Assembly (NCBI GenBank): GCA_022795735.1
Contig: JAAWHG010000007.1
Location: 49,770 to 73,769 of the forward strand
Length of the DNA stretch: 24,000 bases
DNA from: Oscillospiraceae bacterium
GTDB lineage: Bacteria > Bacillota > Clostridia > Oscillospirales > Oscillospiraceae
Reading direction: 5' to 3'
Shown: positions 1,838 to 22,344 of the stretch, piece after piece
Layout of the letters: each line of letters opens with the position of its first letter
How positions within the stretch are numbered: the stretch's first letter is position 1
The notes under the pieces: model-generated
The model's database searches: none
Seen by the model: the letters and a program-made list of their open reading frames with translations, nothing else
What the model was told of the DNA's origin: nothing
Program-made: the position numbers and the translations under genes

Positions 1838-1848
1838 CCCTCAATATT
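1838..1848. promoter_or_regulatory. Third half-site CCCTCAATATT (exact reverse complement of 1722-1732)
   Basis: This 11-mer is the perfect reverse complement of AATATTGAGGG at 1722-1732. It overlaps the -35 position of promoter P1. Confidence 0.4.
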
Positions 1849-1869
1849 CGATTTCAAATTCCGTATATA
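1841..1869 (+). promoter_or_regulatory. Promoter P1 (TCAATA-N17-TATATA, CCG 5' of the -10)
   Basis: Member of the recurrent promoter family: ttCCGTATATAT at 1859-1870, -35-like TCAATA at 1841-1846, exact 17-nt spacer. It lies 30 nt upstream of the ATG at 1900. Confidence 0.45.
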
Positions 1870-1899
1870 TTGGCAAATTTAAAAAATGGAGGAATTAAA

Positions 1900-2172
1900 A
1901 TGCAAACATTTCTGGAAGTGAAGGGAAAGATATTTCCTACAAGTGGAATTTTGAAACAGCTTGATATTGAAGACAAGGATCTTGAGGTTGAGCTGTGTAG
2001 ACGGGCGGCTTTGGGTGTGATCGGGGAGAACGCTTCGCCGGATTTCAATTGCCCTGCGATCAATTTGGATTCTCTGTCAAATGACAACGTTGTCCCCACA
2101 GACATCTCCGCTACGGAACAGGCGAGGGAAGATTCGTTTGTGAAAATCGAAAAGGCGGCGAGATTGGCATGA
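1900..2172 (+). CDS. Hypothetical protein, cassette gene A1 (paralog of 3314-3736)
   Basis: GGAGGA RBS at 1889-1894, then ATG at 1900 (internal to track ORF 1795-2172). MQTFLEVKGK...ASPDFNCPAINLD aligns with MKTYLEINGK...ASPDPHCPAMYLD of A2. The stop overlaps the next start (ATGA at 2169-2172). Confidence 0.75.
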   Translation: MQTFLEVKGKIFPTSGILKQLDIEDKDLEVELCRRAALGVIGENASPDFNCPAINLDSLSNDNVVPTDISATEQAREDSFVKIEKAARLA

Positions 2173-2465
2173 AAAGATGGTATACAGTTACATTTAACGC
2201 AAAGCTGGATGGGGAAGATGTTTGTGATATGAAAAACGCATTCTATCTGATGATGGCCCAGGAAATGCTCATCCAGGAATGTACAAACTTACAGATAAAA
2301 GCGGAAGATCCCAACACGCAGGAAATGAAGAGATGGTATGTAGTTTCCTTTGGTGCAAAAATGGATGAAGATGATCTTCGGGCTATGCAAAGCTGCTTTT
2401 ATCTGGCGATGGAAAAGACATTGTTCATCAAAGAATGCACAGAGCTTCAAATTAAGGCAATTTGA
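2169..2465 (+). CDS. Hypothetical tandem-repeat protein, cassette gene B1 (2 x ~45-aa module)
   Basis: MKRWYTVTFNAKLDGEDVCDMKNAFYLMMAQEMLIQECTNLQIKAE is repeated as MKRWYVVSFGAKMDEDDLRAMQSCFYLAMEKTLFIKECTELQIKA, with a period of 156 nt (W codons at 2178 and 2334). The same module occurs twice in B2 (4115-4408). Confidence 0.8.
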   Translation: MKRWYTVTFNAKLDGEDVCDMKNAFYLMMAQEMLIQECTNLQIKAEDPNTQEMKRWYVVSFGAKMDEDDLRAMQSCFYLAMEKTLFIKECTELQIKAI

Positions 2466-2478
2466 CTTTTGGACTCTA

Positions 2479-2508
2479 CGCCCCTTCCTGTTCTTGTAGG
2501 AAGGGGCG
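2479..2508 (+). terminator. Hairpin after B1 (10-bp GC-rich stem, weak T tail)
   Basis: cgccccttcc (2479-2488) pairs with ggaaggggcg (2499-2508) around a 10-nt loop. There is no strong U-tract, so termination efficiency is uncertain. Confidence 0.45.
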
Positions 2509-2516
2509 CTTCAAAG

Positions 2517-2545
2517 GTAATATGTAATATTTTATTTCGTATATT
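2517..2545 (+). promoter_or_regulatory. Promoter P7 (GTAATA-N17-TATATT), degenerate family member
   Basis: -35-like GTAATA at 2517-2522, 17-nt spacer ending in tttCG, -10 TATATT at 2540-2545. It sits between the hairpin and the dNMP kinase gene. Confidence 0.35.
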
Positions 2546-2623
2546 TCATTAGATTTCAAAAATGCTGTCAAAAACAGGAAAAGCTTTCGTTAAACGGAGC
2601 TGCGAAAATGGAGGTTTTACAAA

Positions 2624-3235
2624 ATGGAAATTGTATTTATTTCAGGAAAAGCCCAGCACGGAAAGGATACCTGCGCATGTCATTTGCAGAACATCCTTTC
2701 AAAGCATGGGAAGAAAGTTCTCATTGCGCATTACGGAGATCTGCTGAAATACATATGCAGGCAATTTTTCGGCTGGAATGGGGAAAAGGATGAAGCCGGC
2801 AGAACGCTTCTTCAGTTTGTTGGGACAGAAGTGATTCGCCGCAAAGCCCCGGATTACTGGGTCAGCTTCCTCAAAGACATCCTCAGATTCTTCCCCGACG
2901 CCTGGGACTTCGTACTGATTCCAGATTGCCGTTTCCCAAACGAAGTGGACATGATTGAGGGGACGCATCTGAGAATCGTGCGGGAGGGATTTGAGTCGCC
3001 GCTGACCAAAGAGCAGCAGTCGCATGAATCGGAAGTTGCGCTGGATAATCACCCCTACGATCAATTGATCATTAACAATGGGACGCGGTTTGAACTCCGC
3101 AGCAAATGTGAAGCTCTGGCAATGTCATTGGGATGGATCCCCCAGAGCAAGTATTGTACCGATTTCAAGGATGTTCAAGACGAGTCCTTTTGTGAGAAGC
3201 ATTGCCTGGGGACAACGTGCGCATTGAAGAGGTAA
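2624..3235 (+). CDS. Deoxynucleoside monophosphate kinase-like P-loop protein (T4 gp1-like)
   Basis: The N-terminus MEIVFISGKAQHGKDT matches the remembered T4 gp1 pattern (IFLSG.K.SGKDT). The later blocks YWV..F, LIPDCRFPNEVD and THLRIVREG...HESE...LIINNG follow the same order as gp1 (IVPDTR...E.D, VIHVVRPG, H.TE, VITNDG). GGAGG RBS lies 9 nt upstream. Confidence 0.65.
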   Translation: MEIVFISGKAQHGKDTCACHLQNILSKHGKKVLIAHYGDLLKYICRQFFGWNGEKDEAGRTLLQFVGTEVIRRKAPDYWVSFLKDILRFFPDAWDFVLIPDCRFPNEVDMIEGTHLRIVREGFESPLTKEQQSHESEVALDNHPYDQLIINNGTRFELRSKCEALAMSLGWIPQSKYCTDFKDVQDESFCEKHCLGTTCALKR

Positions 3236-3313
3236 GCGTCTAATATTTTTCGCTTTATCCCCTAAAATCCATCAGCCAGATCGCAAGATTTTGAAACAAG
3301 GAGGAGTATAAAC

Positions 3314-3736
3314 ATGAAAACTTATCTGGAAATCAACGGGAAGAAAATCTCCATGGATGATCTTCTGAAAGAACTGGGCGTTGACGCCGAGCCATGCGAA
3401 GTAAATCTCTGTCAGGATACACCTTCCGGAACAATCCGGGCAAAAGCATCGCCGGATCCCCATTGCCCCGCAATGTATCTGGATTTTGTTCGCAAAGACG
3501 ACCCTGACACACTCCCTATCGATATCGCCAAGACCGAAGGTCCGGCCGGCTGTCCAGTTCGGACGTATCTGTTTGATCGGGAGTCATATCATTTTGCGTA
3601 CTCCGATATGGATACACGCCCTGACGCTGAGGTCGATAAGAAACTGATGTCGCCTGAACTGGTTGTGAGCGGAGAGCCTTACCTGGACACAATCGTCAAG
3701 CTGGAAGACGAGTTTGTGCGGGTTTATGACATGTAA
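3314..3736 (+). CDS. Hypothetical protein, cassette gene A2 (paralog of 1900-2172 with a C-terminal extension)
   Basis: AGGAGG RBS. The N-terminal ~75 aa align with A1; the extra ~60 aa at the C-terminus have no counterpart in A1. Confidence 0.8.
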   Translation: MKTYLEINGKKISMDDLLKELGVDAEPCEVNLCQDTPSGTIRAKASPDPHCPAMYLDFVRKDDPDTLPIDIAKTEGPAGCPVRTYLFDRESYHFAYSDMDTRPDAEVDKKLMSPELVVSGEPYLDTIVKLEDEFVRVYDM

Positions 3737-3781
3737 AACCGGAACATAGGAAAGGAGGCTTGCCAGCGTTCCCCATTCAAC

Positions 3782-3810
3782 GGGTGTTGGGTGGGGGAAG
3801 CGCTGGGGGG
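3782..3810 (+). other. G-run cluster (GGG-N4-GGG-N1-GGGGG-N7-GGGGGG), potential G-quadruplex
   Basis: Four G-runs at 3782-3784, 3789-3791, 3793-3797 and 3805-3810, ending 2 nt before the ATG at 3812. They cover the position where an RBS is expected. Confidence 0.35.
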
Positions 3811-3811
3811 T

Positions 3812-4432
3812 ATGGAAAAATGTACGAAGTGTGCAGTGTTTTTCGTGTGTAATGAGCAAGTAGAGTTGAAATGCAAGACGAAATGCAGAAAATGCTTGCT
3901 GCGGTTCCACTGTGATGTACAAACAGAATGCATCTGCAAAACAAATGAATTTTGCAAGTATATCAAAGACTATGGAAATCACGGGCATTGGGAACCGCTT
4001 TATGTTTGTTCATACTGCGGACAAACCTCAAAGGTGCAATTTTCTGAATGCCCATGCTGTAATACCAATATGGATGGATTCGACCAATATATATCTGAGG
4101 AGGAAACGAAGTTGAAAAAATGGTACACAATTACTTTTAGCGCCAAATTGGACGAAAATGATGTCCGCGCAATGGGTAGCTGCTTCTATGAAGCGATGGA
4201 GGAATCCATGCTCATCTCGGAATGCTCGAATTTGAAGATTGAGGCGGAACCGGGCAGTGAAAATGGCGGTTCCAAAACCTGGCGCACTGTCACTTTCAGC
4301 GCCAAACTGGACGAGGATGACATCTCCGCAATGCGTAGCTGCTTCTATGAAGCGATGAATGAGTCCATGCTGATTCAGGAGTGCACAGATCTGGAAATCA
4401 AGGAGGAAGAAAAAGATGAAAACAATGGATGA
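3812..4432 (+). CDS. Hypothetical protein, cassette gene B2: Cys-rich N-terminal region plus 2 x ~45-aa B module
   Basis: ATG at 3812 (MEKCTKC...), inside track ORF 3791-4432. The N-terminal 100 aa carry many CxxC pairs (CTKC, CRKC, CSYCG...CPCC). The C-terminal half holds two copies of the WYTITFSAKLDENDVRAMGSCFYEAMEESMLISECSNLKIEAE module. Confidence 0.75.
   Translation: MEKCTKCAVFFVCNEQVELKCKTKCRKCLLRFHCDVQTECICKTNEFCKYIKDYGNHGHWEPLYVCSYCGQTSKVQFSECPCCNTNMDGFDQYISEEETKLKKWYTITFSAKLDENDVRAMGSCFYEAMEESMLISECSNLKIEAEPGSENGGSKTWRTVTFSAKLDEDDISAMRSCFYEAMNESMLIQECTDLEIKEEEKDENNG
4115..4408 (+). repeat. In-frame tandem duplication (2 units, period 159 nt) inside B2
   Basis: Units start at 4115 and 4274. 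An exact 22-mer, tagctgcttctatgaagcgatg, occurs at 4177-4198 and again at 4336-4357. Confidence 0.9.
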
Positions 4433-4823
4433 CTTCAAGGAAATTATGAATGCGGTTCACATCAAAGAAGGGCCTTTCCAACTCAGCCGAGATTTCAATT
4501 GGATAAATTACTCTGGCATCCTGACCAAACTGATCCAGGAGGCCGGACGTTGGTGCAGAAGATATGCCAGCGATCTGTTTATTGACTGGGGGGTAATTGA
4601 CAGACAGATCAAGGATCGTACCATCCAGAGCGGAAGCTACCTTTTTGGTTTTCGTGAGGACGGCGTTGATGATAAACTCTACATTTTTCACAGATATGAT
4701 GCAGATAAATACTGCCAAACCTACCGTGCAATTTGGCGGCTGGACATAGTTGTGGATGACGCCGCCTATCCCAGCAGCGATATGGTTGCAGTGTCGCTTG
4801 ATTTGTACGAAGTCGGGAGATAG
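4416..4823 (+). CDS. Hypothetical protein
   Basis: AAGGAGGAAG RBS; the start overlaps the end of B2 by 17 nt; protein-like composition; no family recognised. Confidence 0.7.
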   Translation: MKTMDDFKEIMNAVHIKEGPFQLSRDFNWINYSGILTKLIQEAGRWCRRYASDLFIDWGVIDRQIKDRTIQSGSYLFGFREDGVDDKLYIFHRYDADKYCQTYRAIWRLDIVVDDAAYPSSDMVAVSLDLYEVGR

Positions 4824-4855
4824 GTCTGCGAAGTAAATTGGAGGAGAAATCAAAA

Positions 4856-5053
4856 ATGTATAATCAGGAATCATGGTTTGAAGCGCCGGAGGAGCGCATA
4901 TTTGGTTGCTGCGACTTCTGCGGCAATGAAATTTACGAGGGCGAACCCTACTACAGCATTGGCGGCAAGATGATTCATGGTGAGTGCCTGGGAGATTTTG
5001 CTGCAAGTCATTTTGCGGGCTGCTTGAAGGAGGCTGTCTGCGATGGCATGTAG
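4856..5053 (+). CDS. Small Cys/His-containing protein, possibly 3'-truncated by the IS
   Basis: GGAGGAG RBS at 4840-4846, ATG at 4856 (MYNQESWFEAPEERIFGCCDFCGNEIYEGEPYYSIGGKMIHGEC...). The TAG stop at 5051 lies right at the left end of the IS element, and no terminator precedes the IS. Confidence 0.65.
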   Translation: MYNQESWFEAPEERIFGCCDFCGNEIYEGEPYYSIGGKMIHGECLGDFAASHFAGCLKEAVCDGM

Positions 5054-5088
5054 TTTTTGCAATGTGTCTTATCACACGTGGCGTAATA

Positions 5089-5109
5089 CCCCTGCCTTCA
5101 GGCATGGGG
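5089..5109 (+). repeat. IS left-end subterminal hairpin (CCCCTGCC-ttca-GGCA[T]GGGG)
   Basis: Stem of 4+4 bp with bulged T5105 and a 4-nt loop. Same architecture as the right-end hairpin. Confidence 0.8.
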
Positions 5110-5180
5110 ATATAAGCCACACCTTGTTCCCCCGTAAAAGACTTCCGGGGATTGCATTAGATATCGTTGAATGGTATAAT

Positions 5181-5579
5181 ATGGCCATGGAATATAAAAG
5201 CAATCACAATGTGGTGTACTCTTGCAAGTATCATGTGGTTTGGTGTCCAAAATATCGCCGCAAGGTCTTGGTCAATGGTGTCGATGTGCGATTGAAGGAA
5301 CTCATAGAGGAAATCTGCGACGAATACCGCACCGACATCATAGAGATGGAAATCATGCCCGACCACATCCATTTGCTCATGGAGGTAGACCCTCAATTTG
5401 GAATACACAAAGCTGTGAAGCTGATTAAAGGACGAACTTCCCGTATTTTGAGACAAGAATATGGATGGCTGCGCTCAAGGCTCCCATCTTTGTGGACAAA
5501 TTCGTACTTTGTTTCCACTGTTGGCGGCGCACCTCTTTCAGTGATTAAGCAGTACATAGAGAATCAGAAGAATGTATGA
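5181..5579 (+). CDS. tnpA: IS200/IS605 Y1 (HUH) transposase TnpA
   Basis: MAMEYKSNHNVVYSCKYHVVWCPKYRRKVL..., HUH motif in MPDHIHLL, catalytic Tyr region WTNSYFVSTVGG, ~132 aa. ATG at 5181 is internal to track ORF 5043-5579; ATG at 5187 is an alternative start. Confidence 0.9.
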   Translation: MAMEYKSNHNVVYSCKYHVVWCPKYRRKVLVNGVDVRLKELIEEICDEYRTDIIEMEIMPDHIHLLMEVDPQFGIHKAVKLIKGRTSRILRQEYGWLRSRLPSLWTNSYFVSTVGGAPLSVIKQYIENQKNV

Positions 5580-5588
5580 GGTGCAGGG

Positions 5589-6701
5589 ATGGAATACAGC
5601 TATAAATTCCGCATCTATCCCAACATGGTGCAGGTACAGCAGATACAGAGGACATTTGGCTGCTGCCGGTTCGTCTGGAACCACTACCTTGCATTGCGAA
5701 AGGAAATCTATGAGCATGACGGGAAAACAATGAACTATAATGCCTGTTCCGAGGATATGACACAGCTTAAAAAAGTCCTTCCGTGGTTGAAAGAGGTAGA
5801 TGCAACCGCTCTGCAATCCTCTCTGCGTGATTTAGATACCGCCTATCAGAACTTCTTCCGGCGGGTGAAGCAAGGCCAGAAGCCCGGCTATCCCCGGTTC
5901 AAAAGCAAACACGACCACCAGAGAAGATACAAGAGTAAGTGCGTGGGCACGAATGTCAAAGTGCTGGATAAAGCTGTACAGCTTCCCAAACTCGGCCTTG
6001 TGAAATGCCAGGTCAGCAAAGAGGTAAAGGGCCGTATCCTGTCGGCAACCGTCGGCCAAAATCCATCCGGGAAATACTTTGTCTCGCTGTGCTGTACTGA
6101 TGTGGAGATAGAACCGCTGCCCTCCACCGGGGCGGTGGCCGGTATCGACATGGGCCTGAAAGCATTTGCTATTACCTCCGATGGTATTGAGTATCCTAAC
6201 CACAAGTACCTGGCCAAGAGGCAGAAGAAGCTTGCCAGGCTCCAGCGGCAGCTGTCCCGAAAATCAAAGGGCAGTAACCGTCGGGAAAAGGCGAGAATCC
6301 AAGTTGCCCGTCTCCATGAACACGTTACGAATCAGAGGGCGGATATGCTCCACAAGCTGTCCACTGGCCTTGTGCGAGACTATGACCTGATAGCCATTGA
6401 GGATTTAGCGCCGTCCAACATGGTGAAGAATCACAGTTTGGCTCGGTCTATCTCCGATGCTTCCTGGGGCGAGTTCCGTCGGCAGTTAGAGTACAAGGTG
6501 GCATGGTACGGAAAGCAGGTGGTCACGGTAGACCGCTTCTTCCCGTCCTCTCAGCTATGCTCCGCCTGCGGCGCTCAGTGGCCTGGAACAAAGGACTTGT
6601 CCGTGCGCGAATGGACTTGCCCAGTGTGCGGCGCTGTCCATGACCGGGATGTGAACGCCGCAAAGAACATCTTGAATGAAGGTCTGCGTCTGCTGGCGTA
6701 G
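5589..6701 (+). CDS. tnpB: TnpB (IS605 OrfB) RNA-guided RuvC endonuclease
   Basis: Typical N-terminus YKFRIYPN...Q; RuvC D in GIDMGLK; E in IAIEDL; zinc ribbon CSACG...CPVCG; Ruv[15 protein letters not shown]; 370 aa. Confidence 0.9.
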
Positions 6702-6846
6702 CCTACATATGGTACGGTGGGGCACACCGGAACCTATACGCTCGGGGACACCGTGTAAGACCTCGCTGGTGCAGGCTGTGGTGGTTGAGCCGAGAATCCC
6801 CCGGCTTTAGCCGTGGGGAGTGTCAATGCGCAAGCCGAAGACGAGA
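6670..6846 (+). ncRNA. Predicted TnpB omega (re)RNA scaffold plus ~20-nt guide. The 5' end is a guess.
   Basis: By analogy with characterised TnpB systems, the scaffold overlaps the tnpB 3' end and the right end (structured region 6700-6826). The guide is the flank immediately after TCAA: tgcgcaagccgaagacgaga (6827-6846). Confidence 0.45.
6798..6818 (+). repeat. IS right-end subterminal hairpin (CCCCCGGC-ttta-GCCG[T]GGGG)
   Basis: 4+4 bp stem with bulged T6814, preceded by GAAT (6794-6797) and followed by AGTGTCAA. Confidence 0.8.
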
Positions 6847-6902
6847 CTGATCACTATTATCCAAAGTTTTGCCCGGAGTGCGGACGAAAACATGAAGACT
6901 AA
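6828..6902 (+). pseudogene. Orphan coding tail AQAEDETDHYYPKFCPECGRKHED* directly right of the IS
   Basis: An open frame starts at the IS right junction, contains a CPEC zinc-knuckle half-site, ends in TAA at 6900-6902, and is followed 9 nt later by a strong terminator. There is no start codon or RBS of its own. Confidence 0.35.
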
Positions 6903-6910
6903 CATTTTGA

Positions 6911-6946
6911 AAACGCAAACTTTGAAATACAAGTTTGCGTTTTTTC
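6911..6946 (+). terminator. Rho-independent terminator (11-bp stem plus T6)
   Basis: aaacgcaaact (6911-6921) pairs with agtttgcgttt (6932-6942), and the T-run extends to 6946. Confidence 0.75.
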
Positions 6947-7040
6947 TTTCGGGTCAGAATGCAGAAAAACAAATGCGTCCCCCTGCCACCTCCCACAGAC
7001 CACTCAACTCCCCACACCACCCGACTCCTTCTCTCACACC

Positions 7041-7051
7041 CCCGCAAAGGC
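7041..7051 (-). repeat. GCCTTTGCGGG 11-mer, copy d (minus orientation)
   Basis: The plus strand reads cccgcaaaggc. On the minus strand the 11-mer is followed by a G-rich tract (the plus-strand C-runs at 6979-7043). Confidence 0.8.
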
Positions 7052-9739: not shown

Positions 9740-10288
9740 TTAAAACGAAGTTATGTACTTTCTTAAAAATTCCGTCACCATCTTAACCGCCATATATCTT
9801 TCATTCTCATTCGCCTCGAAAAGCGCTCCTTTGTCCCCAATGATTGCCACAGATCCCACACACATATTATTTCGCATAATCGGCATAACTTCTGCAACAG
9901 GGTATCTATTGTAGGCGTCAAGAAAAATAGTCTCTGTGTTATCACCGGCATCAATACGGGATTCGCTCATGCTCCGCTGCATTTCCGGGCTAACGGGTCT
10001 GTCGATAATAGAATTCTTTTCTGCGCCGGATGCCGCAATGACATTATCTCTGTCTGTAACCGCCATGGAAAATCCAAAGCTGTTGAAAACAGCGTCACAA
10101 ATCTGTTTCGCCAAAACACCAAGTTCTTTTTTCATAAAAGAATGTTTTTTGAGTGCAATTTCTCCTTCAGTCGTTATATAGATTTCAAATTCATCGCCTT
10201 CCTTGATCTTTGCCATGCGGCGGATTTCCCTTGGAATGGTTATGCGGCCTAGATCGTCAATGTAGCGAGTGGTTCCGATTGTTTTCAT
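9740..10288 (-). CDS. SpoVT/AbrB-family transcriptional regulator (AbrB-type N-domain plus GAF-like C-domain)
   Basis: The N-terminus MKTIGTTRYIDDLGRITIPREIRRMAKIKEGDEFEIY matches the swapped-hairpin AbrB/SpoVT signature (RRIDDLGRVVIPKEIRR...GD.LEI). The 182-aa length and the C-terminal part (AVTDRDNVIAASG...GSVAII) parallel the remembered SpoVT. AGGAGG RBS. Confidence 0.8.
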   Translation of the reverse strand: MKTIGTTRYIDDLGRITIPREIRRMAKIKEGDEFEIYITTEGEIALKKHSFMKKELGVLAKQICDAVFNSFGFSMAVTDRDNVIAASGAEKNSIIDRPVSPEMQRSMSESRIDAGDNTETIFLDAYNRYPVAEVMPIMRNNMCVGSVAIIGDKGALFEANENERYMAVKMVTEFLRKYITSF

Positions 10289-10617: not shown

Positions 10618-10646
10618 ATTATACGGGTAAGCAATTAAAATATTAG
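10618..10646 (-). promoter_or_regulatory. Promoter P6 (CTAATA-N17-TATAAT, CCCG 5' of the -10), drives the minus operon
   Basis: The minus strand reads CTAATAttttaattgcttaCCCGTATAAT: -10 at plus 10618-10623, -35 at plus 10641-10646. Confidence 0.55.
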
Positions 10647-10674: not shown

Positions 10675-10703
10675 TTGTTATTTGAAATTTTTACCCGTAT
10701 TAT
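10675..10703 (+). promoter_or_regulatory. Promoter P2 (TTGTTA-N17-TATTAT, CCCG 5' of the -10), divergent from P6
   Basis: TTGTTAtttgaaatttttaCCCGTATTAT. Back-to-back with P6, with 28 bp between the two -35 elements. Confidence 0.5.
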
Positions 10704-10730: not shown

Positions 10731-10895
10731 TTGAGTTATGATATTAGTTTGCAAAATTCAGTCACCGGAGAAACAATTCTTTTGGACAATCTTCATCTGA
10801 TGGCTGGAGGAACATTTGCCGCTGGCGGTACAAGAGAGGCATGACTGAATATCACTTATAACTATTCAAAGTGGTATTACAACCCGGCTTGTTGA
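10731..10895 (+). pseudogene. 5' fragment of a phage gene, with an in-frame TGA, truncated at the IscB element
   Basis: AAAGGAG RBS, then TTG at 10731. Reads (M)SYDISLQNSVTGETILLDNLHLMAGGTFAAGGTREA-[TGA 10842-10844]-LNITYNYSKWYYNPAC-TGA. The coding-like sequence continues through the internal stop and ends where the structured IscB upstream region begins. Confidence 0.55.
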
Positions 10896-11105
10896 ACTAT
10901 TCAATTCTTGATCAATTCAGCGGGTCGGATACCGACAATACTTGTCCATTTTGCCACCCGATCACGTATCGCGTGACATGACACTCCGGGATGCACTCCC
11001 AGTTCCGGACTCTGTAGCGTGAACAAGTAATCTGGGGAGACCTTACATAGACGGGTATCACATATCTGCCTGTGGTTTACTACATTTTTGAAAGGAGATG
11101 GCGAA
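10880..11105 (+). ncRNA. Predicted IscB omega RNA (guide plus ~200-nt scaffold). Ends are approximate.
   Basis: Characterised IscB systems encode the omega RNA directly upstream of iscB. This 210-nt non-coding stretch is rich in local hairpins (GTCGG-ata-CCGAC, TCACG-tatcg-CGTGA, GGGA-tgcac-TCCC nested inside CCGG...CCGG). The only ORF here (10901-11110, minus) looks spurious. Confidence 0.5.
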
Positions 11106-12554
11106 TACATGGTATATGTATTAAATCATGAAGGAAAACCTTTAATGCCCACGACACGCTATGGACACGTCCGCCGTCTTCTAAAGACGGGTCAGGCGAA
11201 AGTTAAATACGGCAACCCGTTTACCATCCAACTATGCTATAAAACCGAAGACAAAGTTCAGCCTGTTATTTTGGGCATTGATCCAGGTCGAACAAATATT
11301 GGGCTTTGCGCTGTTACCGACGATGGAACTGCTCTATTTGCAGCCAAAATCATCACCCGAAACAAAGACATTCCCAGACTCATGCGGAAACGCAAGCAAT
11401 TCCGCCAAAAGCACCGGCAAGTCAAGAGACGCTTGAAACGCCGCCGTCGTGCAAAAAAGAATAATACTATCTTGAAGACCGGCATTCTTCAACGACACCT
11501 AACGGGTTATAGTAAAGATAAATGCGTCACTGTACATGATATCAGAAACAAGCAATCTCGTTTCAGCAATCGCTGCCGCAGCCCAAATTGGCTGACTCCG
11601 ACAGCAAACCAATTACTGCAGACACATATCAATGCTGTCAACAAGATCAGTAAGTATCTCCCTGTTTCAGGCATATCTATTGAATTGAATAAGTTTGCCA
11701 TGATGAAATTGGATGATTCAACTATATTCGGGAAAGACTTTCAAAATGGACCACTGAAAGGATATGGTAAAGACATCCATCAAGCGGTTTCCGACATTCA
11801 AGATGGAAAATGCCTTCTCTGCGGCAAATCCATTGCTGAATACCATCATGTGCGAACACGCAGTAAAGACGGCAGCAATACCATTGGAAATCTTGTCGGC
11901 TTATGCCATGAATGCCATAAGAAAGTCCATACGGACGAATCTGTTAAACAACAGCTTGCCACTGTTAATTCCGGTTTCCGAACGAAATACGATGCTCTTG
12001 GCGTGTTAAACCAAATACTGCCTTATGTGATCAATATCCTCAGGAGAAAATATCCCTTACATATAACGACGGGATATGAAACTTCGCGTGTGAGAAAAAC
12101 AGCCAACCTGCTGAAAGACCATCATGTAGATGCGCATCTCATAGCAATCTCAGGGTTGAATGTAAAACGAATCATAACAATCGATCATTGTTATGCCATC
12201 AAACAATTCAGACGCCATGACAGGCAGGCATGTAAACGCGAAATGCTGAACCGGCGTTATTATCTTGGGAACCAACTGGTAGCGACAAACCGACATAAAG
12301 CCTTTGAACAAACCACGGATAGTCTGGCCGACTACATAACAAATGGAGGCAGAGCCGACCATTTGACTGTAAAGCATATAACGCGAGCCATGACGGACAA
12401 AAAACGTTTCATGCCGGGTTGTCAAGCCGGAAACAAAACTATATTAAAACGAGCTGAAGGCAATTATTGGTTTGACGATGGGTCAAAAACAACTTGTAAG
12501 AAAACATTAATAAATAAACGAAATGCCGGGCTTGTTTTTGTATCAAATTTGTAA
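10896..12554 (+). mobile_element. Non-autonomous IS200/IS605-superfamily IscB element (no tnpA). Boundaries are approximate.
   Basis: Omega-RNA region plus iscB, inserted into the gene at 10731. The right end was not identified; a TCAA at 12543-12546 inside the last iscB codons is a candidate. Confidence 0.5.
11109..12554 (+). CDS. iscB: IscB RNA-guided nuclease (PLMP, RuvC and HNH domains)
   Basis: MVYVLNHEGKPLMPT (PLMP domain). RuvC-I GIDPGRTNIG. Arg-rich bridge helix KRRLKRRRRAKK. RuvC-II ISIELNKF. HNH CLLCG...YHHV...GSNTIGNLVGLCHECHKKVH. RuvC-III DHHVDAHLIAI. 481 aa from the ATG at 11109. Confidence 0.88.
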   Translation: MVYVLNHEGKPLMPTTRYGHVRRLLKTGQAKVKYGNPFTIQLCYKTEDKVQPVILGIDPGRTNIGLCAVTDDGTALFAAKIITRNKDIPRLMRKRKQFRQKHRQVKRRLKRRRRAKKNNTILKTGILQRHLTGYSKDKCVTVHDIRNKQSRFSNRCRSPNWLTPTANQLLQTHINAVNKISKYLPVSGISIELNKFAMMKLDDSTIFGKDFQNGPLKGYGKDIHQAVSDIQDGKCLLCGKSIAEYHHVRTRSKDGSNTIGNLVGLCHECHKKVHTDESVKQQLATVNSGFRTKYDALGVLNQILPYVINILRRKYPLHITTGYETSRVRKTANLLKDHHVDAHLIAISGLNVKRIITIDHCYAIKQFRRHDRQACKREMLNRRYYLGNQLVATNRHKAFEQTTDSLADYITNGGRADHLTVKHITRAMTDKKRFMPGCQAGNKTILKRAEGNYWFDDGSKTTCKKTLINKRNAGLVFVSNL

Positions 12555-13960: not shown

Positions 13961-13989
13961 TTGATTTTTTCCGAAAGAAATAGTATAAT
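13961..13989 (+). promoter_or_regulatory. Canonical sigmaA-type promoter for the tRNA (TTGATT-N17-TATAAT)
   Basis: TTGATT at 13961-13966, exact 17-nt spacer, TATAAT at 13984-13989, 10 nt before tRNA position 1. It differs from the CTAATA/CCG family. Confidence 0.7.
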
Positions 13990-15740: not shown

Positions 15741-15769
15741 GGGACAACCTGATTATATATTAAGCCCCC

Positions 15770-15801
15770 GGCTCCTGCGGTTTTCGCAGGAGCCGTTTTT
15801 T
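15770..15801 (+). terminator. Rho-independent terminator
   Basis: ggctcctgcg (15770-15779) pairs with cgcaggagcc (15785-15794), followed by GTTTTTT. Confidence 0.8.
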
Positions 15802-15809
15802 CGTGCAGC

Positions 15810-15838
15810 CTGATAATTAAAAATTTTTCCCGTATTGT
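15810..15838 (+). promoter_or_regulatory. Promoter P3 (CTGATA-N17-TATTGT, CCCG 5' of the -10)
   Basis: CTGATAattaaaaatttttCCCGTATTGT, immediately after the terminator and 35 nt before the ATG at 15873. Confidence 0.5.
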
Positions 15839-16927: not shown

Positions 16928-17677
16928 ATGAAGGTTTTGTACTTCAAGGGAGCTGAATGAAGTGGCACTGAGGTCAGCAAAGCGACCATTAGCGACTACC
17001 GGATTCGTACCGCCTTCGATCTGAACGATGGAAAAGCGGTGTATCTGGAAATTATCGGTTCTGAACACACGAAATACAGTTCGCCGTAAATTCACAAATG
17101 GCCGTATACCGGCTTTGCAGATTCCTGTTTCTATATCACCGACGAGAAGCAGAACAATAATGAAAACAAACACAGAATCCGGCTGACTGACAAGCGGAGA
17201 ATTTTTGAGTATACAGAAAAGTCCATCTTAAAATTTGTCAATAAACTTGGCGCTAACTTTGACGCAATCAGAGTTGTCAATGATTTGGGCGGATTCAGGG
17301 TGATTAAGGAGAAATATTCTAATCATAATCCGTCTAATTTTAATTACGGCGACGAATTTGTTTATGATGCGGAAATGGTATCTCGCCGACAAATGGTCTA
17401 TGACAAGATTTCTGAAATCGAAAAAGCGGAACTGGCGGAGGACAGAGCAAACCATGGCAACAAGTTTGTTCACTCTCCCGGCCCAATCGACTACCCCAAC
17501 TTCTCTCTGTGGGTTGATGAAGAAAACGCTGGTGTCCCGCATCTCCAGCGCCATTTCAATGGCTATAACAAGCACTGGGTAATCTGCACTGATTGTGGGG
17601 AAACGCTGGATGATTGGATGGGGTCGATGACAGAGGCGCCGCTTGGGCAGTATGTTAAAAAGGCAATTAAAATTTAA
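16928..17677 (+). pseudogene. 250-codon coding-like frame interrupted by in-frame TGA (16958-16960) and TAA (17087-17089), with no frameshift
   Basis: AAAGGAGAA RBS, then ATG at 16928. I verified codon by codon that 16928-17677 is a single frame: MKVLYFKGAE*SGTEVSKATISDYRIRTAFDLNDGKAVYLEIIGSEHTKYSSP*IHKWPYTGFADSCFYITDEKQNNNENKHRIRLTDKRRIFEYTEKSILKFVNKL... It runs into track ORF 17285-17677, which may still be expressed on its own. Confidence 0.6.
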
Positions 17678-17692
17678 AAGGGAGATATGAAT

Positions 17693-18121
17693 ATGTATAG
17701 TAACACTGTAGATAGTCTTCTGAAAGCAATTTTAAGCTGCGGAAGTATGGATCTCGAAATGCTGAATGATGTCAAATATGACTTCGATGAAATCATTGAA
17801 CAGCTCGACGATGAACCTCTTCAAAATGTGGGCTTTAACGGCTTTATGAGAGCCGTCGTAGATGTTGGAATTATATATCTCCAGGAAGCTATCGACGACC
17901 GAATTTGCGAATTGGAAGCGATTTATTCCGAAAGGGATCTGGAGGATGAAGAAGAGGAAGAACTCGCTGTCTTGCGGCGTCTTGATCCCAATTACGATAT
18001 TGAGGCTTACTTTAATTGCCTGGATACTCGTGTGTATTTTCTGAACAATGAAGAAGCATACCGGACATATATGGCGGATGCTATTGATTCGTTTGCGGAC
18101 AATACAGGATTAAATCTGTGA
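17693..18121 (+). CDS. Acidic hypothetical protein
   Basis: GGGAG RBS 8 nt before the ATG at 17693; the ATG at 17687 is too close to the RBS. Contains an acidic stretch, DLEDEEEEE. Confidence 0.7.
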   Translation: MYSNTVDSLLKAILSCGSMDLEMLNDVKYDFDEIIEQLDDEPLQNVGFNGFMRAVVDVGIIYLQEAIDDRICELEAIYSERDLEDEEEEELAVLRRLDPNYDIEAYFNCLDTRVYFLNNEEAYRTYMADAIDSFADNTGLNL

Positions 18122-18143
18122 CTAAAAACAGGAGGAATGTGAA

Positions 18144-18377
18144 ATGAAACCTTATTACATTGTTTCCATGGACTGCGGGTCCGCGCAGTCGTTTGATGAG
18201 GCAGTAGAGATTGCGAGAAAATATGCAGAAAAAGATATCGGCACTGTGAGAATTATGGGCCGCGACCAACACGATATGGTGACAGAAACAGCCGTCTGCC
18301 TTCCTGATGGCGGTGTATTTGGGGGAAAGACTTCAAATAAGTCTGAATCGTCGGAAGAGTTGACACGGATAATGTAA
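18144..18377 (+). CDS. Small hypothetical protein
   Basis: AGGAGGA RBS, 77 aa. Confidence 0.7.
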   Translation: MKPYYIVSMDCGSAQSFDEAVEIARKYAEKDIGTVRIMGRDQHDMVTETAVCLPDGGVFGGKTSNKSESSEELTRIM

Positions 18378-18463
18378 CATGCCGTTCTGCTTATCAATGG
18401 AATCCTTCGCATGAAAGGATCCAAAATTTCTTGTGAGACGTTAAGACGCAACATAAAAGGCTA

Positions 18464-18507
18464 AACCAGCCGTCGCATTTCAAGTGCGGCGGCTGGTTTG
18501 TTTTTTT
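18464..18507 (+). terminator. Rho-independent terminator
   Basis: aaccagccg...cggctggtt long stem, followed by TGTTTTTTT. Confidence 0.8.
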
Positions 18508-18535
18508 GCCTTTGCGGGAGTGCGCGGCTGCGCAC
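18508..18535 (+). repeat. GCCTTTGCGGG 11-mer, copy c, plus mini-hairpin GTGCGC-ggct-GCGCAC
   Basis: Exact 11-mer at 18508-18518 and a perfect 6-bp hairpin at 18520-18535. The arrangement is the same as at 9714-9739. Confidence 0.8.
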
Positions 18536-18551
18536 ATTTTGTGAGATGAGA

Positions 18552-18580
18552 CTAATATAACAAAATGATTCCCGTATAAT
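18552..18580 (+). promoter_or_regulatory. Promoter P4 (CTAATA-N17-TATAAT, CCCG 5' of the -10)
   Basis: CTAATAtaacaaaatgattCCCGTATAAT, 46 nt before the ATG at 18626. Confidence 0.55.
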
Positions 18581-18625
18581 CAAATCAGCATAGGAAAAAT
18601 GCTGTTTTGAAAGGAGAAAGTTTTT

Positions 18626-18979
18626 ATGACCAGTGAATTGGAGCGTGAGTACCGCAAGGAACTTTTTAAACTCATGCAGGAAAATCCGGATCTGCCTGTT
18701 GTTCCATTTGTGAATATCGAGGTTGTGGCCGGAGACGGCTTTGGGAAGTGGATGGGTAGCTGGGGGAGTGCTCGTGTGGATGAATACCTCATTCCAGCGA
18801 GGGACTGGGAACCGGTGATTTTCAAGAGTGGAAACTACGACGTCTCAGATATCCTTGAGAAATATCTTTCTTATGAGGAATTTGATGAACTCCCGGATGC
18901 CCCAAGTGAGTGGTTAAAACTTTATGATGCGCTTCCGTGGAAGAAGGCAATTATCGTTGATATCACCTTGCCAGAGTGA
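18626..18979 (+). CDS. Hypothetical protein
   Basis: AAAGGAGAAAG RBS, 117 aa. Confidence 0.75.
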   Translation: MTSELEREYRKELFKLMQENPDLPVVPFVNIEVVAGDGFGKWMGSWGSARVDEYLIPARDWEPVIFKSGNYDVSDILEKYLSYEEFDELPDAPSEWLKLYDALPWKKAIIVDITLPE

Positions 18980-19012
18980 AAAGGAAAATTGAAAAGATAA
19001 GGAGAATTTAAC

Positions 19013-19339
19013 ATGCTGCTTTTTGTGGATAAAGAGTATCGTAATAAAATTCGTAAGAATCGAAAAGCCTTGTTGAAGGCATATTCGGACACCAAAAGCC
19101 CCGAAGCCGCCGCTGCAACACTTGCGGTTGAAATTGGTTTGAAGGATGCGCAAGAAATTGTGGCGATAATGATAACGGCCAAAAGAGGGATCGACTGCGG
19201 GATCAGCGCGAAAAACCACGAGTGGGCCAACAAAGTATTGTGCGGTAATGCGGACGATTTTGCAGGGGCGGGGATTTTCTACTGTAGCCAAATTTGTCCT
19301 GTTTATCTGAACCGGATTGCAAACGACCTAAGAGAGTGA
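19013..19339 (+). CDS. Hypothetical protein
   Basis: AAGGAGAA RBS, 108 aa. Confidence 0.7.
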   Translation: MLLFVDKEYRNKIRKNRKALLKAYSDTKSPEAAAATLAVEIGLKDAQEIVAIMITAKRGIDCGISAKNHEWANKVLCGNADDFAGAGIFYCSQICPVYLNRIANDLRE

Positions 19340-19347
19340 AGAAAGTC

Positions 19348-19908
19348 ATGAGCGATAAGGAAAGAATTCTGATGTGCCTGGTCACTGGAATATTCAGGCG
19401 AAGTCTGTATATCTCCGAAAGCGTAAGCAAGTGGAGAGAATCACAACCCGGAATCTTTAGTGGAGAAAACCCTCTTATGCCAGGCGATTTGGTCATGGCA
19501 AGCACCACATTGGATCCCAATGAGTTTATGGTTGGATTCGTAGAGCGTATTTGTGCGGATCATGTTGTAATCAGAGAAATCGGGGGAAATCGTCTATGCA
19601 ACTATTACAATGAGCATTTCTATAGAATTGATAAAGAAATTCTGGGGAATGAGATTCTGGAAGGGACTCAGTACGTAACGTACCGAAAGGTTCTAAAGGC
19701 ATTTTCCAAGTCGGATAATTCATTTATGATTCGATTCCAATCAATTAGTTTTGATAAAAACATATGTACTGTGAGCGCACGAAAATGCTTTTCGGACGAA
19801 ACGCTTTATACCGTGTCGTTTAAGTACAACAAGAAAACAACAATCAAAAGCATAGTTGAAATATTAAACAAGGAAGGTGAGAGGGCTAACAAGGAAAGTA
19901 ACAAATAA
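19348..19908 (+). CDS. Hypothetical protein
   Basis: ATG at 19348 (MSDKERIL...), chosen because the upstream part of track ORF 19294-19908 overlaps the previous gene. The RBS is weak. Confidence 0.65.
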   Translation: MSDKERILMCLVTGIFRRSLYISESVSKWRESQPGIFSGENPLMPGDLVMASTTLDPNEFMVGFVERICADHVVIREIGGNRLCNYYNEHFYRIDKEILGNEILEGTQYVTYRKVLKAFSKSDNSFMIRFQSISFDKNICTVSARKCFSDETLYTVSFKYNKKTTIKSIVEILNKEGERANKESNK

Positions 19909-19931
19909 CATCAAACTAGCAGGAGGATAAA

Positions 19932-20204
19932 ATGGAATTATCTAATACTCTATGCAAAAAGGCAATACATGTAATCGGGTTGGATTACAAGAAACCGTAT
20001 ACCCGTCATGGGAAAAAGTTCTACCGCCCATATCGCAATAGGTGGGCAGGGAAGGACGCAGAGCTTGATCAATTGGCAGACGCTGGGCTGATGAGGAAGA
20101 ACGTTGATGAGACCGGAGAACACTGCTGGTATTGGTTTACCCGCAGCGGTTTGGATTGGCTCGGCGAACAACTCGATATAAAAATTTTGCCGAAAGACAA
20201 ATAA
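19932..20204 (+). CDS. Small basic hypothetical protein
   Basis: AGGAGGA RBS, 90 aa, K/R/W-rich. Possibly DNA-binding, but this is a guess. Confidence 0.7.
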   Translation: MELSNTLCKKAIHVIGLDYKKPYTRHGKKFYRPYRNRWAGKDAELDQLADAGLMRKNVDETGEHCWYWFTRSGLDWLGEQLDIKILPKDK

Positions 20205-20232
20205 CTTTATTAAACAAAAGGAGAATTTAATT

Positions 20233-20610
20233 ATGAATATCAATCTGACTCACAGTGAACTGACCAGCCTCATTGCTGCACTCGACCTGGCAATCCAGGA
20301 TAAAGGCGATGCAGCCAAATGCACAACAGACGCTGACGATAAGGCTGACTGCCAAAGCGAAGCGGAAATATTGTCTGGTATTCAAGCGAATATTCTGCGG
20401 CAAATGGCGTCGAACCACAGTATTTCTGTTGCCGTAGAGGTCAGAGGCGGTCTTGTGCAGAATATCTATTCTAATGGGGACGTGTCGGCTGAGGTCTATA
20501 ATCTGGATATTTCAGACTTCCCTGATGAGGGGGAGGAAGATGAGGCAGACAGACGTTCCAAAGAATTGGAGGAACTGTGTCGCCAGCCCGGATGGAAAGC
20601 TATTTGGTAA
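20233..20610 (+). CDS. Acidic hypothetical protein
   Basis: AAGGAGAA RBS, 125 aa. Confidence 0.7.
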   Translation: MNINLTHSELTSLIAALDLAIQDKGDAAKCTTDADDKADCQSEAEILSGIQANILRQMASNHSISVAVEVRGGLVQNIYSNGDVSAEVYNLDISDFPDEGEEDEADRRSKELEELCRQPGWKAIW

Positions 20611-20634
20611 ATAAACGAAAGGCGGGAAATCCAA

Positions 20635-20904
20635 ATGACGATCAGAGAGTTGACTCATACGCAGCAATTTATCGAAGAAACAAAGGAATATATTCAAAAA
20701 CTCAATCATGCTGCTGGAAGTGATGCGGCCATTCATGATGCCTTGAATAATATTTTCTGCAAATTCATGGATGGAAAAGGAATAGAGATTTGCGTGGTCC
20801 TTCAAAATGCATACAAGCATTTGGGCGATTACGGTAACTTGCTGGACGACATTGCAGCGGCGACCGAAATTTCCTGGCCGCCTGAATGTGTAAACAAGAA
20901 ATGA
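20635..20904 (+). CDS. Hypothetical protein
   Basis: 89-aa ORF in operon context; weak RBS. Confidence 0.6.
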   Translation: MTIRELTHTQQFIEETKEYIQKLNHAAGSDAAIHDALNNIFCKFMDGKGIEICVVLQNAYKHLGDYGNLLDDIAAATEISWPPECVNKK

Positions 20905-20920
20905 GAAAGGGAGATCATCA

Positions 20921-21136
20921 ATGAAGATCGTGCAACAATACATTTGCGAAGTCTGTGGCACTCAGTATGCAGACAAGGAGCAAGCGGAGAAATGTGAATC
21001 CAACCACAAGAAGGACCTGAAAATTACAAACCTCCGCTATCTGCCTATCACCTCCGATGCCAGCGGCCTCCCCACAACCATCACAATCGAATATAAAGAG
21101 GGGAAATATACGAGGACTGCTACGTACAAGCGTTAG
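20921..21136 (+). CDS. Small protein with an N-terminal CxxC...C motif
   Basis: AGGGAGA RBS. MKIVQQYICEVCGTQYADKEQAEKCESNH. Confidence 0.7.
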   Translation: MKIVQQYICEVCGTQYADKEQAEKCESNHKKDLKITNLRYLPITSDASGLPTTITIEYKEGKYTRTATYKR

Positions 21137-21181
21137 GGTCTGTAAACAAGATTATATTTTTTGAAAGGATTGTTCAATATT

Positions 21182-22039
21182 ATGAGCATAATTGTGAACA
21201 TACCAACGACAGAAGTGTCTGAAAACACATATCTCAACGATTTGCGTTCAAATCCCAACAATATGTCAAATTGGTTGCCGGCTATCATTCCAGCAGATGG
21301 AGAAGAAAGACTACTGCGTATCCCTAAGACACTCATCGTGCAAGTTCCAGATGATGTCTGCAAGAGTTTCTTTATGGATTACTATAACAAAGACAGGGAG
21401 CGGATTATTCAATTCGTCAAAGAACAGGTAATGCCGAAGGTAAAAGAAGTGGGGATCTATCCTAGTATGTTCATAAAAAACGGAGGATTTTCTGATAAGT
21501 ACCAATTCAATCTCTGTACACCCGGCCCAGACGAAGTGGACATGGCAATGAATCTCATTAAAATGAATTATGATGCCCTCTGCTTTGGTGCGGACGGGAT
21601 TACGGAGGTCTGTATACGGGAACTCATCCCACACAATACAAAGACGACACCCTGCATCTATCATGGGATGCCGCTCAGACCTGAATTCAGAGTCTTTTAT
21701 GATTTTGACCGACATCAGCCGCTCTATATCGTCAACTACTGGGATTGGGATTACTGCCACGATGCTATATGCCGGGATTACACAGACAAGATTGTGTATG
21801 AAGCATATTACCCACGGCTGCTTGACCAATACAATGAGTACAAAGACAGTGTTATAGAAATGGTTGCCGCTGATATGGCATCTGTTTCCGCGCTCAAAGG
21901 CATTTGGTCAGTAGATGTGATGCTTTGCGAATCGCAGGAGCGTCAAAAGGAATATGAAGGGTTTTGGCTTATCGATATGGCTATTGGCTGTCGGTCTGCA
22001 TATTGGAATCCAGAATATGTTCAAGTGGAGGAAACGTAA
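21182..22039 (+). CDS. Hypothetical protein, tentatively ATP-grasp-like fold
   Basis: ATG at 21182, inside track ORF 21161-22039. The motif order MFIKNGGFSDK ... CIRELIP ... RPEFRVFY ... WSVDVML ... FWLIDMAIG resembles the ATP-grasp pattern (Lys strand, hinge E, E-x-R-v-f, two acidic metal ligands). The canonical E-x-N is replaced by D-M-A. Confidence 0.6.
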   Translation: MSIIVNIPTTEVSENTYLNDLRSNPNNMSNWLPAIIPADGEERLLRIPKTLIVQVPDDVCKSFFMDYYNKDRERIIQFVKEQVMPKVKEVGIYPSMFIKNGGFSDKYQFNLCTPGPDEVDMAMNLIKMNYDALCFGADGITEVCIRELIPHNTKTTPCIYHGMPLRPEFRVFYDFDRHQPLYIVNYWDWDYCHDAICRDYTDKIVYEAYYPRLLDQYNEYKDSVIEMVAADMASVSALKGIWSVDVMLCESQERQKEYEGFWLIDMAIGCRSAYWNPEYVQVEET

Positions 22040-22261
22040 ATGATAACTTTGAAGGAAGCGTTTAAACTGTGCCGCATAGATGACAGAGAAGTTGTGCATT
22101 TTTGCGACAGCGTGGAACAGGAAAAAATGTGGAGTTGGCCGATGACAGGGAAAGAGGTCAGGGAAAAGTACGACATGAAGAACACGATAGTTACGAGCAT
22201 TCTTCCGCACTTCTGCTGTGGCGAGTTTAAGGGATTCTCCTTCGTATTACGCAAACATTGA
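22040..22261 (+). CDS. Small hypothetical protein
   Basis: The ATG directly abuts the preceding TAA (taaatg). 73 aa. Confidence 0.65.
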   Translation: MITLKEAFKLCRIDDREVVHFCDSVEQEKMWSWPMTGKEVREKYDMKNTIVTSILPHFCCGEFKGFSFVLRKH

Positions 22262-22266
22262 TTTAA

Positions 22267-22301
22267 AACAGGGCCTCTTTTTCAAGAGGCTCTGTTTTTT
22301 T
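22267..22301 (+). terminator. Rho-independent terminator
   Basis: gcctct (22273-22278) pairs with agaggc (22285-22290), with flanking acag/ctgt, followed by T7. Confidence 0.75.
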
Positions 22302-22315
22302 GATTTGTGTACTTG

Positions 22316-22344
22316 CTAATATATAAAATATTTTCCCGTACAAT
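22316..22344 (+). promoter_or_regulatory. Promoter P5 (CTAATA-N17-TACAAT, CCCG 5' of the -10)
   Basis: CTAATAtataaaatattttCCCGTACAAT, directly after the terminator and 72 nt before the ATG at 22416. Confidence 0.5.

Follow-up and report, generated by a model that had tools for sequence, protein, structure and literature searches.

The subject of this analysis is a family of promoters with a conserved CCG just upstream of the -10 hexamer, which recurs in a stretch of 24,000 nucleotides (nt) of DNA (hereinafter, the window) from an Oscillospiraceae bacterium. The host genome (G000) comprises 2.4 Mb in 70 contigs, and the window is G000:C60:49770-73769 (C60, C56 and C66 denote contigs of the host genome, and L-numbers denote comparison loci). 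The window lies in a block of low G+C content (41-50%) that extends from ~35 kb of C60 to the end of this contig (74,528) and occupies C56 from position 1 to ~23-30 kb; the G+C content of most of the host genome is 54-62%. From the composition and the common promoters, we infer that the end of C60 is joined to the start of C56. The left edge of the block carries an integrase gene, and the host gene just beyond this edge resembles lysS. Because no virion or conjugation genes were seen in the examined parts of the element (~61 kb; the terminase matches are on other contigs), we call it a phage-like integrative element, integrase-bounded and at least ~61 kb in length. The block encodes a deoxynucleoside monophosphate (dNMP) kinase, a full NAD-dependent ligase (ligA), a tRNA-Pro, an RRXRR/HNH protein of the IscB type, an IS200/IS605 pair, a SprT-like protein, Lar-like zinc-ribbon proteins and a SpoVT/AbrB-family protein, together with ~40 small open reading frames (ORFs) without family assignment. 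The combination of a Tn916-type integrase with phage-type nucleotide-metabolism genes, without virion genes in the examined 61 kb, is unusual.

The promoters and the other features on which the argument relies are the following (positions in the window unless a contig is named). The designations P1 to P8 come from an earlier account of this DNA, made from the letters alone and referred to below as the sequence-only reading; RBS stands for ribosome-binding site, and aa for amino acids.

1841-1869, plus strand: P1, TCAATA-N12-TTCCG-TATATA, a degenerate member; gene at 1900
2517-2545, plus strand: P7, GTAATA-N12-TTTCG-TATATT; dNMP kinase gene at 2624
3240-3268, plus strand: a member added here, absent from the sequence-only reading, CTAATA-N12-TCCCC-TAAAAT, one mismatch; gene at 3314, RBS and ATG 45 nt downstream
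9740-10288, minus strand: SpoVT/AbrB-family DNA-binding protein, second gene of the P6 operon (Pfam SpoVT_C, 2e-17; MazE/AbrB, 1e-9)
10618-10646, minus strand: P6, CTAATA-N12-ACCCG-TATAAT, exact match; RBS and ATG 41 nt downstream, predicted start at ~10612
10675-10703, plus strand: P2, TTGTTA-N12-ACCCG-TATTAT, divergent from P6; gene starting with TTG at 10731
13961-13989, plus strand: tRNA-Pro promoter, TTGATT-N17-TATAAT with AATAG at -17 to -13; the second promoter without CCG, besides P8
15158-15186, plus strand: P8, CTGATA-N17-TATAAT with ATCAA at -17 to -13; same frame without CCG, used as a comparator
15769-15795, plus strand: terminator-like hairpin and T-run, closing the unit upstream of P3
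15810-15838, plus strand: P3, CTGATA-N12-TCCCG-TATTGT, exact match; block from 15873 to ~18377, predicted start at ~15844
18462-18500, plus strand: terminator-like hairpin and T-run, closing the unit upstream of P4
18552-18580, plus strand: P4, CTAATA-N12-TCCCG-TATAAT, exact match; block from 18626 to ~22261, predicted start at ~18587
22265-22298, plus strand: terminator-like hairpin and T-run, closing the unit upstream of P5
22316-22344, plus strand: P5, CTAATA-N12-TCCCG-TACAAT, exact match; block from 22416 on, predicted start at ~22350
G000:C60:36148-38347, left edge of the low-GC block: Tn916-type tyrosine integrase with an Arm DNA-binding domain (Pfam Phage_integrase, 2.5e-28; Integrase_DNA, 8e-26)
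Beside the integrase gene: putative excisionase gene (xis), 67 aa, without a family match

A promoter family private to the element

When aligned, the members of the family display the -35 hexamer (C/T)T(G/A)ATA, 12 AT-rich, unconserved bases, the block T-(C/T)-C-C-G and the -10 hexamer TAtAaT, with a spacer of exactly 17 nt and a conserved T-Y-A-G context 4-7 nt downstream of the -10. Over 19 sites, the information content is highest in the -35, at -12T, -11A and -7T and in the CCG, which with 1.2-1.6 bits per position equals the best positions of the -10; the first 12 positions of the spacer contribute 0-0.6 bits. Within this set, CCG itself is found in 12 sites, C(C/A)G in 15 and the G at -13 in 17. 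The sub-type that combines CTAATA with CCCG is confined to 3.2-22.3 kb of the window; the other sites have TTGATA or TTAATA as the -35 hexamer and T(T/A)CCG as the block. The sequence-only reading had called the -35 hexamer "non-TTGACA", a description that does not hold in that form: across the members it matches TTGACA at 3-5 of the six positions, the family form (C/T)TGATA at 4-5, always at the standard distance of exactly 17 nt, and CTAATA is a local variant. Thus, a "non-canonical -35" is overstated, and the true peculiarity of these promoters is the conserved CCG at -15 to -13.

Four sites in the window match the pattern CTRATA-N13-CCCGTANNNT exactly, with no such match elsewhere in the 2.4-Mb genome, and these are the four core sites at the positions where the sequence-only reading had placed them (10618-10646 on the minus strand; 15810-15838, 18552-18580 and 22316-22344 on the plus strand). 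With up to two mismatches allowed, seven matches are present in the window versus 0.62 expected, and none of the 100 dinucleotide shuffles reached seven. To avoid circularity, a matrix was built from the four exact sites only; it detected seven more sites in the element at 12 bits or above, versus 0.91 in shuffles that keep the local 50-nt composition. A matrix made from 16 sites recovered its 16 seeds and 3-4 new sites above 17 bits, all of them on C60:40-72 kb or C56:9.9-20.6 kb, with the exception of a single host site, the rpsF promoter, which carries TCCAG. Altogether, the wider family consists of ~19-20 members spread over at least 61 kb, all on the low-GC island, with the rpsF site as the sole comparable one in the host; by this measure, the repeat is private to the element. 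In agreement with this, YTRATA-N14-CCGTANNNT has 13 matches in the host genome versus at most three in any of 400 genomes of the same family, and the reversed-pattern control gave 0 matches in this genome. Pattern scans of IMG/VR produced only single, isolated matches at the chance level. The match at 5421-5449 falls within the reading frame of the IS200 tnpA gene and is probably a chance occurrence. Our own Gibbs sampler, applied to AT-rich segments, settled on the RBS and a low-complexity signal and was uninformative. The promoter family is real, statistically robust and lineage-specific.

One site of the family is located ahead of almost every gene block of the element. All sites of the family are followed by a co-oriented RBS and start codon at 25-158 nt, with a range of 25-78 nt, on the same strand, for the copies listed in the window, which supports the proposal of the sequence-only reading that the sites mark the starts of transcription units. 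As for the terminators that it placed ahead of most copies, P3, P4 and P5 directly follow terminator-like T-run hairpins and P7 follows a GC-rich hairpin. The unit of P6 includes an 83-aa gene, the SpoVT-like gene, two small genes and ligA. With respect to the four copies that had been considered degenerate, P1 (TTCCG), P2 (ACCCG) and P7 (TTTCG) belong to the family, and P8, with ATCAA and no CCG, falls outside the CCG class. The tRNA promoter has the form that had been given for it, TTGATT-N17-TATAAT, with AATAG in the place of the block.

The host promoters are of a different kind in this region. Among 248 sites of the host that combine good hexamers with an RBS downstream, T is found at -17 in 130, a purine at -16 in 164, T at -15 in 119 and G at -14 in 142. 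This is the TRTG extended -10 of Firmicutes; at -14, the rarest base is C (19 of 248). In the host, 154 of the 882 TATAAT occurrences are preceded by TGn and six by CCG (CCGTATAAT), compared to three and three, respectively, of the 34 occurrences in the element. The -35 of the 154 host TGnTATAAT sites, taken without bias, is TTG(a/c)(a/c)a. In phages that are otherwise unrelated but have single genes in common with the window (~220 kb; L005-L012 and L022-L027), none of the generic -35/N17/-10 sites is of the CCG type, and there are several promoter-like sites of the TG type. Thus, as the sequence-only reading had suggested, the CCG at -15 to -13 is both conserved and element-specific, and host promoters lack it there. 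A literature search with the motif strings yielded only papers that, judging by their titles, appear to be unrelated. An element or phage with a promoter class of its own is of a familiar kind; the particular CCG element, in place of the host extended -10, is new as far as our searches reach.

Several further repeats and structures were noticed near these promoters. The 11-mer GCCTTTGCGGG is present in seven copies at no more than one mismatch versus 0.42 expected (window positions 1791, 7041, 7068, 9714, 15109, 15522 and 18508), of which two precede P1 and P4, lying 33-39 nt ahead of the -35, and another falls within the terminator hairpin of ligA. The sequence TTGCGGGA is also found ahead of promoters beyond the window, at C60:42646 and C60:47936. 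The repeat may represent either a terminator module or a second signal common to these units. Outside the window, at G000:C60:42795-42860, the palindrome CCCATATATGGTG lies downstream of a TTTCG-type promoter of nrdD (anaerobic ribonucleotide reductase); we presume that it resembles an NrdR box. A conserved 5' leader hairpin was considered as a family feature and discarded, with only 3-5 of 18 leaders folding better than shuffles; the orthologue in L029 breaks one pair of the hairpin.

Conservation of the CCG in related loci

Syntenic metagenome contigs were identified via the SpoVT-like protein, the sequence of which is 90% identical in L034, 86% in L036 and 55% in L037 and L040, and two further loci, L028 and L029, via the neighbour gene of P4. 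No syntenic relatives were detected in the phage database, in IMG/VR searched by protein, in 300 genomes of the family searched by DNA or in 185,579 species genomes; the IMG/VR loci that share one gene with the window lack the motif.

The divergent P6/P2 region is conserved in all syntenic relatives. At -17 to -13 of P2, ACCCG of the window corresponds to TTCCG in L034 and to GCCCG in L036 and L037. The orthologue of P6, which has ACCCG in the window, is CTGATA..TCCCG TATATT in L034 and TTGATA..TTTCA TATAAT in L036, that is, one of the two intact P6 orthologues retains (C/T)CG; the orthologues of P2, P3, P4 and P7 all retain it. In particular, the P7 orthologue in both L034 and L036 is CTGATA..TTCCG TATCTT (TTTCG in the window), the P3 orthologue in L037 is ATGATA..CTCCG TATTAT (TCCCG in the window), and P4 in L029 keeps TCCCG, with only two changes in the 29-mer, both in the upstream spacer, ahead of a protein that is 85% identical. 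The orthologue of the added member at 3240-3268 is CTGATA..TCTCA TATAAT. In the two promoters without CCG, the P8 orthologue in L037 retains ATCAA and the orthologue of the tRNA-Pro promoter in the same locus is TTGATA..AATAG TATAAT. Over 12 orthologue pairs, the identity is 82% in the -35, 65% in spacer positions 1-12, 54% at -17/-16, 81% at -15 to -13 and 88% in the -10. The alignments show that the CCG was apparently inherited and maintained within the lineage, at a level of conservation comparable to that of the hexamers.

The same comparison brought out several rearrangements. In L037, the 55%-identity relative, a deletion of ~38 nt, seen when L037:9590-9730 is set against L036:1875-2050, has eliminated the -10 and the leader of the P6 orthologue ahead of the SpoVT-like operon. 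Both of the divergent -35 boxes in L036 and L037 are within a near-perfect 30-bp palindrome (TGATATCAAAAGAAATTTCTTTTGATAT), which is lacking in the window. The gene driven by P2 is an intact ORF of 140 aa in the syntenic relatives (L034:1335-1757, L036:1468-1890, L040:1290-1712); in the window (10731-12554), the 3' two-thirds of this gene are replaced by ~1.7 kb comprising a structured non-coding stretch and the RRXRR/HNH gene, and the replacement is therefore an insertion specific to the window copy. Likewise, the IS200/IS605 pair (tnpA and tnpB, window 5043-6850) is absent from the syntenic L034 and L036, where a 135-aa gene is directly followed by the convergent ligA, with no such pair in between.

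Another sequence that came up in the course of this work is the 29-mer TTGATAACGCTCCCCATAGGCCGTATCAT, which is found in about a dozen genomes from different genera of the family, often at contig ends (G000:C66:149-177 on the minus strand, L030, L032, L033). Some 370 nt around the copy are identical in the three other genomes that were read, and the present genome has a copy with differences at scattered positions. The ~0.2-2.1 kb examined downstream contained no rRNA or other Rfam RNA. The notion that this is a host rRNA promoter mimicked by the motif was rejected, given the lack of a downstream rRNA and the near-identity of the flanks across genera; it is probably the end of a widespread mobile element rather than a host promoter.

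How the CCG might be read

The form of RNA polymerase that reads these promoters is, very probably, the one that contains the host primary sigma factor (sigma-A). We settle on sigma-A because the frame fits, two promoters without CCG share this frame and no sigma domain was found in the element. Indeed, the -10 is TATAAT-like, with conserved -11A and -7T, and the TTGACA-like -35 is exactly 17 nt away, so both the hexamers and the spacing are of the host type and none of the divergence of hexamers expected of a phage sigma (for example, SPO1 gp28/gp34) is apparent. What the members lack is the TG at -15/-14 of an extended -10: they carry CC (or CA or TC), and none of the listed sites has TG. 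Because the tRNA-Pro promoter and P8 share the frame without CCG, the CCG appears to be an addition to a working sigma-A frame.

The explanation that we tentatively prefer, while granting it somewhat less than an even chance, is that these are sigma-A promoters supplemented with a CCG control element, at which a regulator would dock and switch the units together; among the options raised in the sequence-only reading, a regulator site embedded in the spacer seems the most plausible. Under this scheme, host sigma-A would use the TGATA-type -35, the exact 17-nt AT-rich spacer and TAtAaT and would start at a pyrimidine-A 6-7 nt downstream. The CCG, often within TCCCG, would be overlaid on this frame at -15 to -13, where the host carries the TG of TRTG. 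A sequence-specific factor would then bind at the triplet and switch all the units as one set, which we infer and consider the weakest step of the scheme, and the triplet could be regarded as an operator built into the promoter, with the regulator site fused to the -10, comparable to the operators of lambda and P1 and to the SPBRE sites of SPbeta. A dedicated reader is favoured because the CCG sits where the host prefers TG and is both private to the lineage and maintained. The only recognisable transcription factor of the element, and hence the only visible candidate for this role, is the SpoVT/AbrB-family protein encoded in the divergent P6/P2 control region, which matches B. subtilis SpoVT (PDB 2W1T) over residues 1-159 (E 2.5e-27); that it reads the CCG is a conjecture. 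The 148-aa protein beside xis, which looks like a helix-turn-helix protein, had no match in a PDB sequence search, and none of the host regulator boxes compared (Fur, PerR, Zur, Spo0A, LexA, CodY, cre) fits the motif.

Several observations weigh against this explanation. No dyad symmetry, clear second half-site or convincing direct repeat was found in the motif, which is unusual for the site of a dimeric repressor, and neither an HTH_3/XRE (CI-type) repressor nor a second recombinase-fold protein was found in the element. AbrB-family proteins have a loose sequence preference, so a signal as sharp as the CCG is not expected of this family. The element is only partly assembled, with contig C60 stopping 759 nt past the window. 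Furthermore, the orthologue pairs are few (12) and non-independent, and the triplet at -15 to -13 is conserved also in both promoters without CCG, so its conservation may reflect a general constraint of RNA polymerase contact rather than a separate factor.

The last point leads to the strongest of the alternatives, which we consider possible but rather unlikely, namely, that the CCG is an intrinsic promoter element, read by the sigma-A polymerase itself through sigma region 3 or the upstream fork junction, or excluding a TG extended -10, and that it tunes promoter strength or the kinetics of open-complex formation with no dedicated factor involved. This would account for the conservation of -15 to -13 whatever the sequence (CCG, CAA in P8, TAG in the tRNA promoter) at the position contacted by sigma region 3, the helix of which, VHMVExINK, is kept in both sigma-A paralogues of the host, and it sits well with a motif that is devoid of dyad symmetry and for which no regulator with a matching site was identified. 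However, a host that prefers TG and avoids C at -14 makes CCG an unlikely favourable contact for the same polymerase, and the recurrence of the triplet in ~12-15 unrelated promoters of the lineage, and in none of the unrelated phages examined, is left unexplained.

A dedicated sigma factor, or an appropriator in the style of AsiA/MotA, which the sequence-only reading had put forward, is an improbable explanation. Such a protein would be encoded by the element in an unrecognisable form or on its unassembled part, and the CCG and TRATA would be its specificity determinants. Indeed, the motif is specific to the lineage and departs from the host consensus at -14/-15 and at position 5 of the -35, most of the ~40 small ORFs have no assigned family, and the assembly of the element is incomplete. 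However, no Sigma70_r2, r4 or r4_2 domain was matched in C60:35-74.5 kb or C56:1-30 kb (~61 kb of an incompletely assembled element), and full Pfam scans of 40 ORFs of the element and PHROGs scans of 30 gave no match to a sigma factor or to AsiA-like or MotA-like proteins. The promoters themselves also speak against it: they combine a near-perfect TATAAT, including -11A and -7T, with a TTGACA-like -35 exactly 17 nt away, whereas in the known cases of phage sigmas and of appropriation, one or the other of these elements is replaced, and promoters without CCG share the same frame. Neither do the alternative sigma factors fit. An extracytoplasmic function (ECF) reading (AAC-N16-CGT) founders on the -35, which is TRATA, and on the conservation of the positions after CGTA, especially the final T at -7; the consensus sequences of sigma-D/FliA (GCCGATAT), sigma-E/K (CATACAnT), sigma-F/G and sigma-I fail at conserved positions, and for ECF, sigma-D and sigma-E/K alike, the conserved -7T and the G at -13 are particular points of conflict.

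Somewhat more doubtful still is the idea that the CCG is a previously undescribed promoter element at which a small unannotated protein of the element retargets sigma-A, by remodelling region 3 or by bridging the polymerase and the DNA; if true, Firmicutes would have their own form of sigma appropriation, targeted to the extended -10 position instead of the -35. Finally, it is very improbable that the similarity between the sites reflects shared ancestry only, with a promoter cassette duplicated or spread between module boundaries and a functionless CCG: P3-P6 do have CTRATA and TCCCG in common within 12 kb, and the junctions between phage modules often coincide with conserved promoters and terminators, but the 12 upstream spacer bases and both flanks are unalignable between paralogous sites when the CCG is alignable, and the CCG is kept in orthologues in which the spacer has turned over. 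The orthologue identities already provide, in part, the comparative evidence of selection on the CCG that would contradict this idea.

Relation to known systems

Large phages and integrative elements rely on private promoter families to switch dozens of genes in concert, and identifying the reader of such a family usually leads to the master switch. In the present case, the signal occupies the extended -10 position with a sequence that host promoters avoid, in an element of an uncultured lineage in which neither a repressor nor a sigma factor is recognisable. Were a factor to read the CCG, this would be a new way of marking "own" promoters in Firmicutes and would provide a handle on the regulation of ~40 genes annotated without a function; if there is none, the sites simply make up a clearly delimited set of promoters that can help to annotate the transcription units of such elements.

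Each of the known systems that come to mind shares some features with the CCG promoters. The middle promoters of phage T4, with the MotA box and AsiA/MotA, are likewise a phage-specific class with many copies that keeps the host -10; however, a box centred at -30 takes the place of the -35 in T4, whereas here a TTGACA-like -35 is at the standard spacing. The -16 region of Firmicutes (TRTGnTATAAT) is also a conserved block at -17 to -13 directly upstream of TATAAT, but the element has (T)YCCG instead of TRTG, and the C at -14 is the base that the host avoids most. In the lambda OR and OL regions, a GC-rich operator is located in the spacer and overlaps the -10 of sigma-70-type promoters (GGCGGT-GATAAT in PR), and the C1 operators of phage P1 are asymmetric and dispersed over the genome in many copies; both resemble the present case in having a GC-rich sequence in the spacer at the -10 of sigma-70-type promoters. 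The lambda operators, however, are 17-bp pseudo-palindromes, in contrast to the motif described here, which has no dyad, and no CI/XRE or C1-like repressor was found.

Another parallel is the SPBRE repeat of the Bacillus subtilis prophage SPbeta, which is found in ~10 promoters and, after its initial detection as an intergenic repeat and its prediction in silico, was shown to be bound by the master repressor MrpR, also named YopR (PMC10516654). SPBRE differs in being a 15-bp site with a proven binder of the tyrosine-recombinase fold, whereas here 3-5 bp are fused to the -10 and no such protein was found. In both cases, a short, element-private sequence is repeated in at least ~10 promoter regions of one large integrated phage-type element. 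Moreover, SPBRE, too, was first seen in silico only, and it controls many early or accessory units together (PMC10516654).

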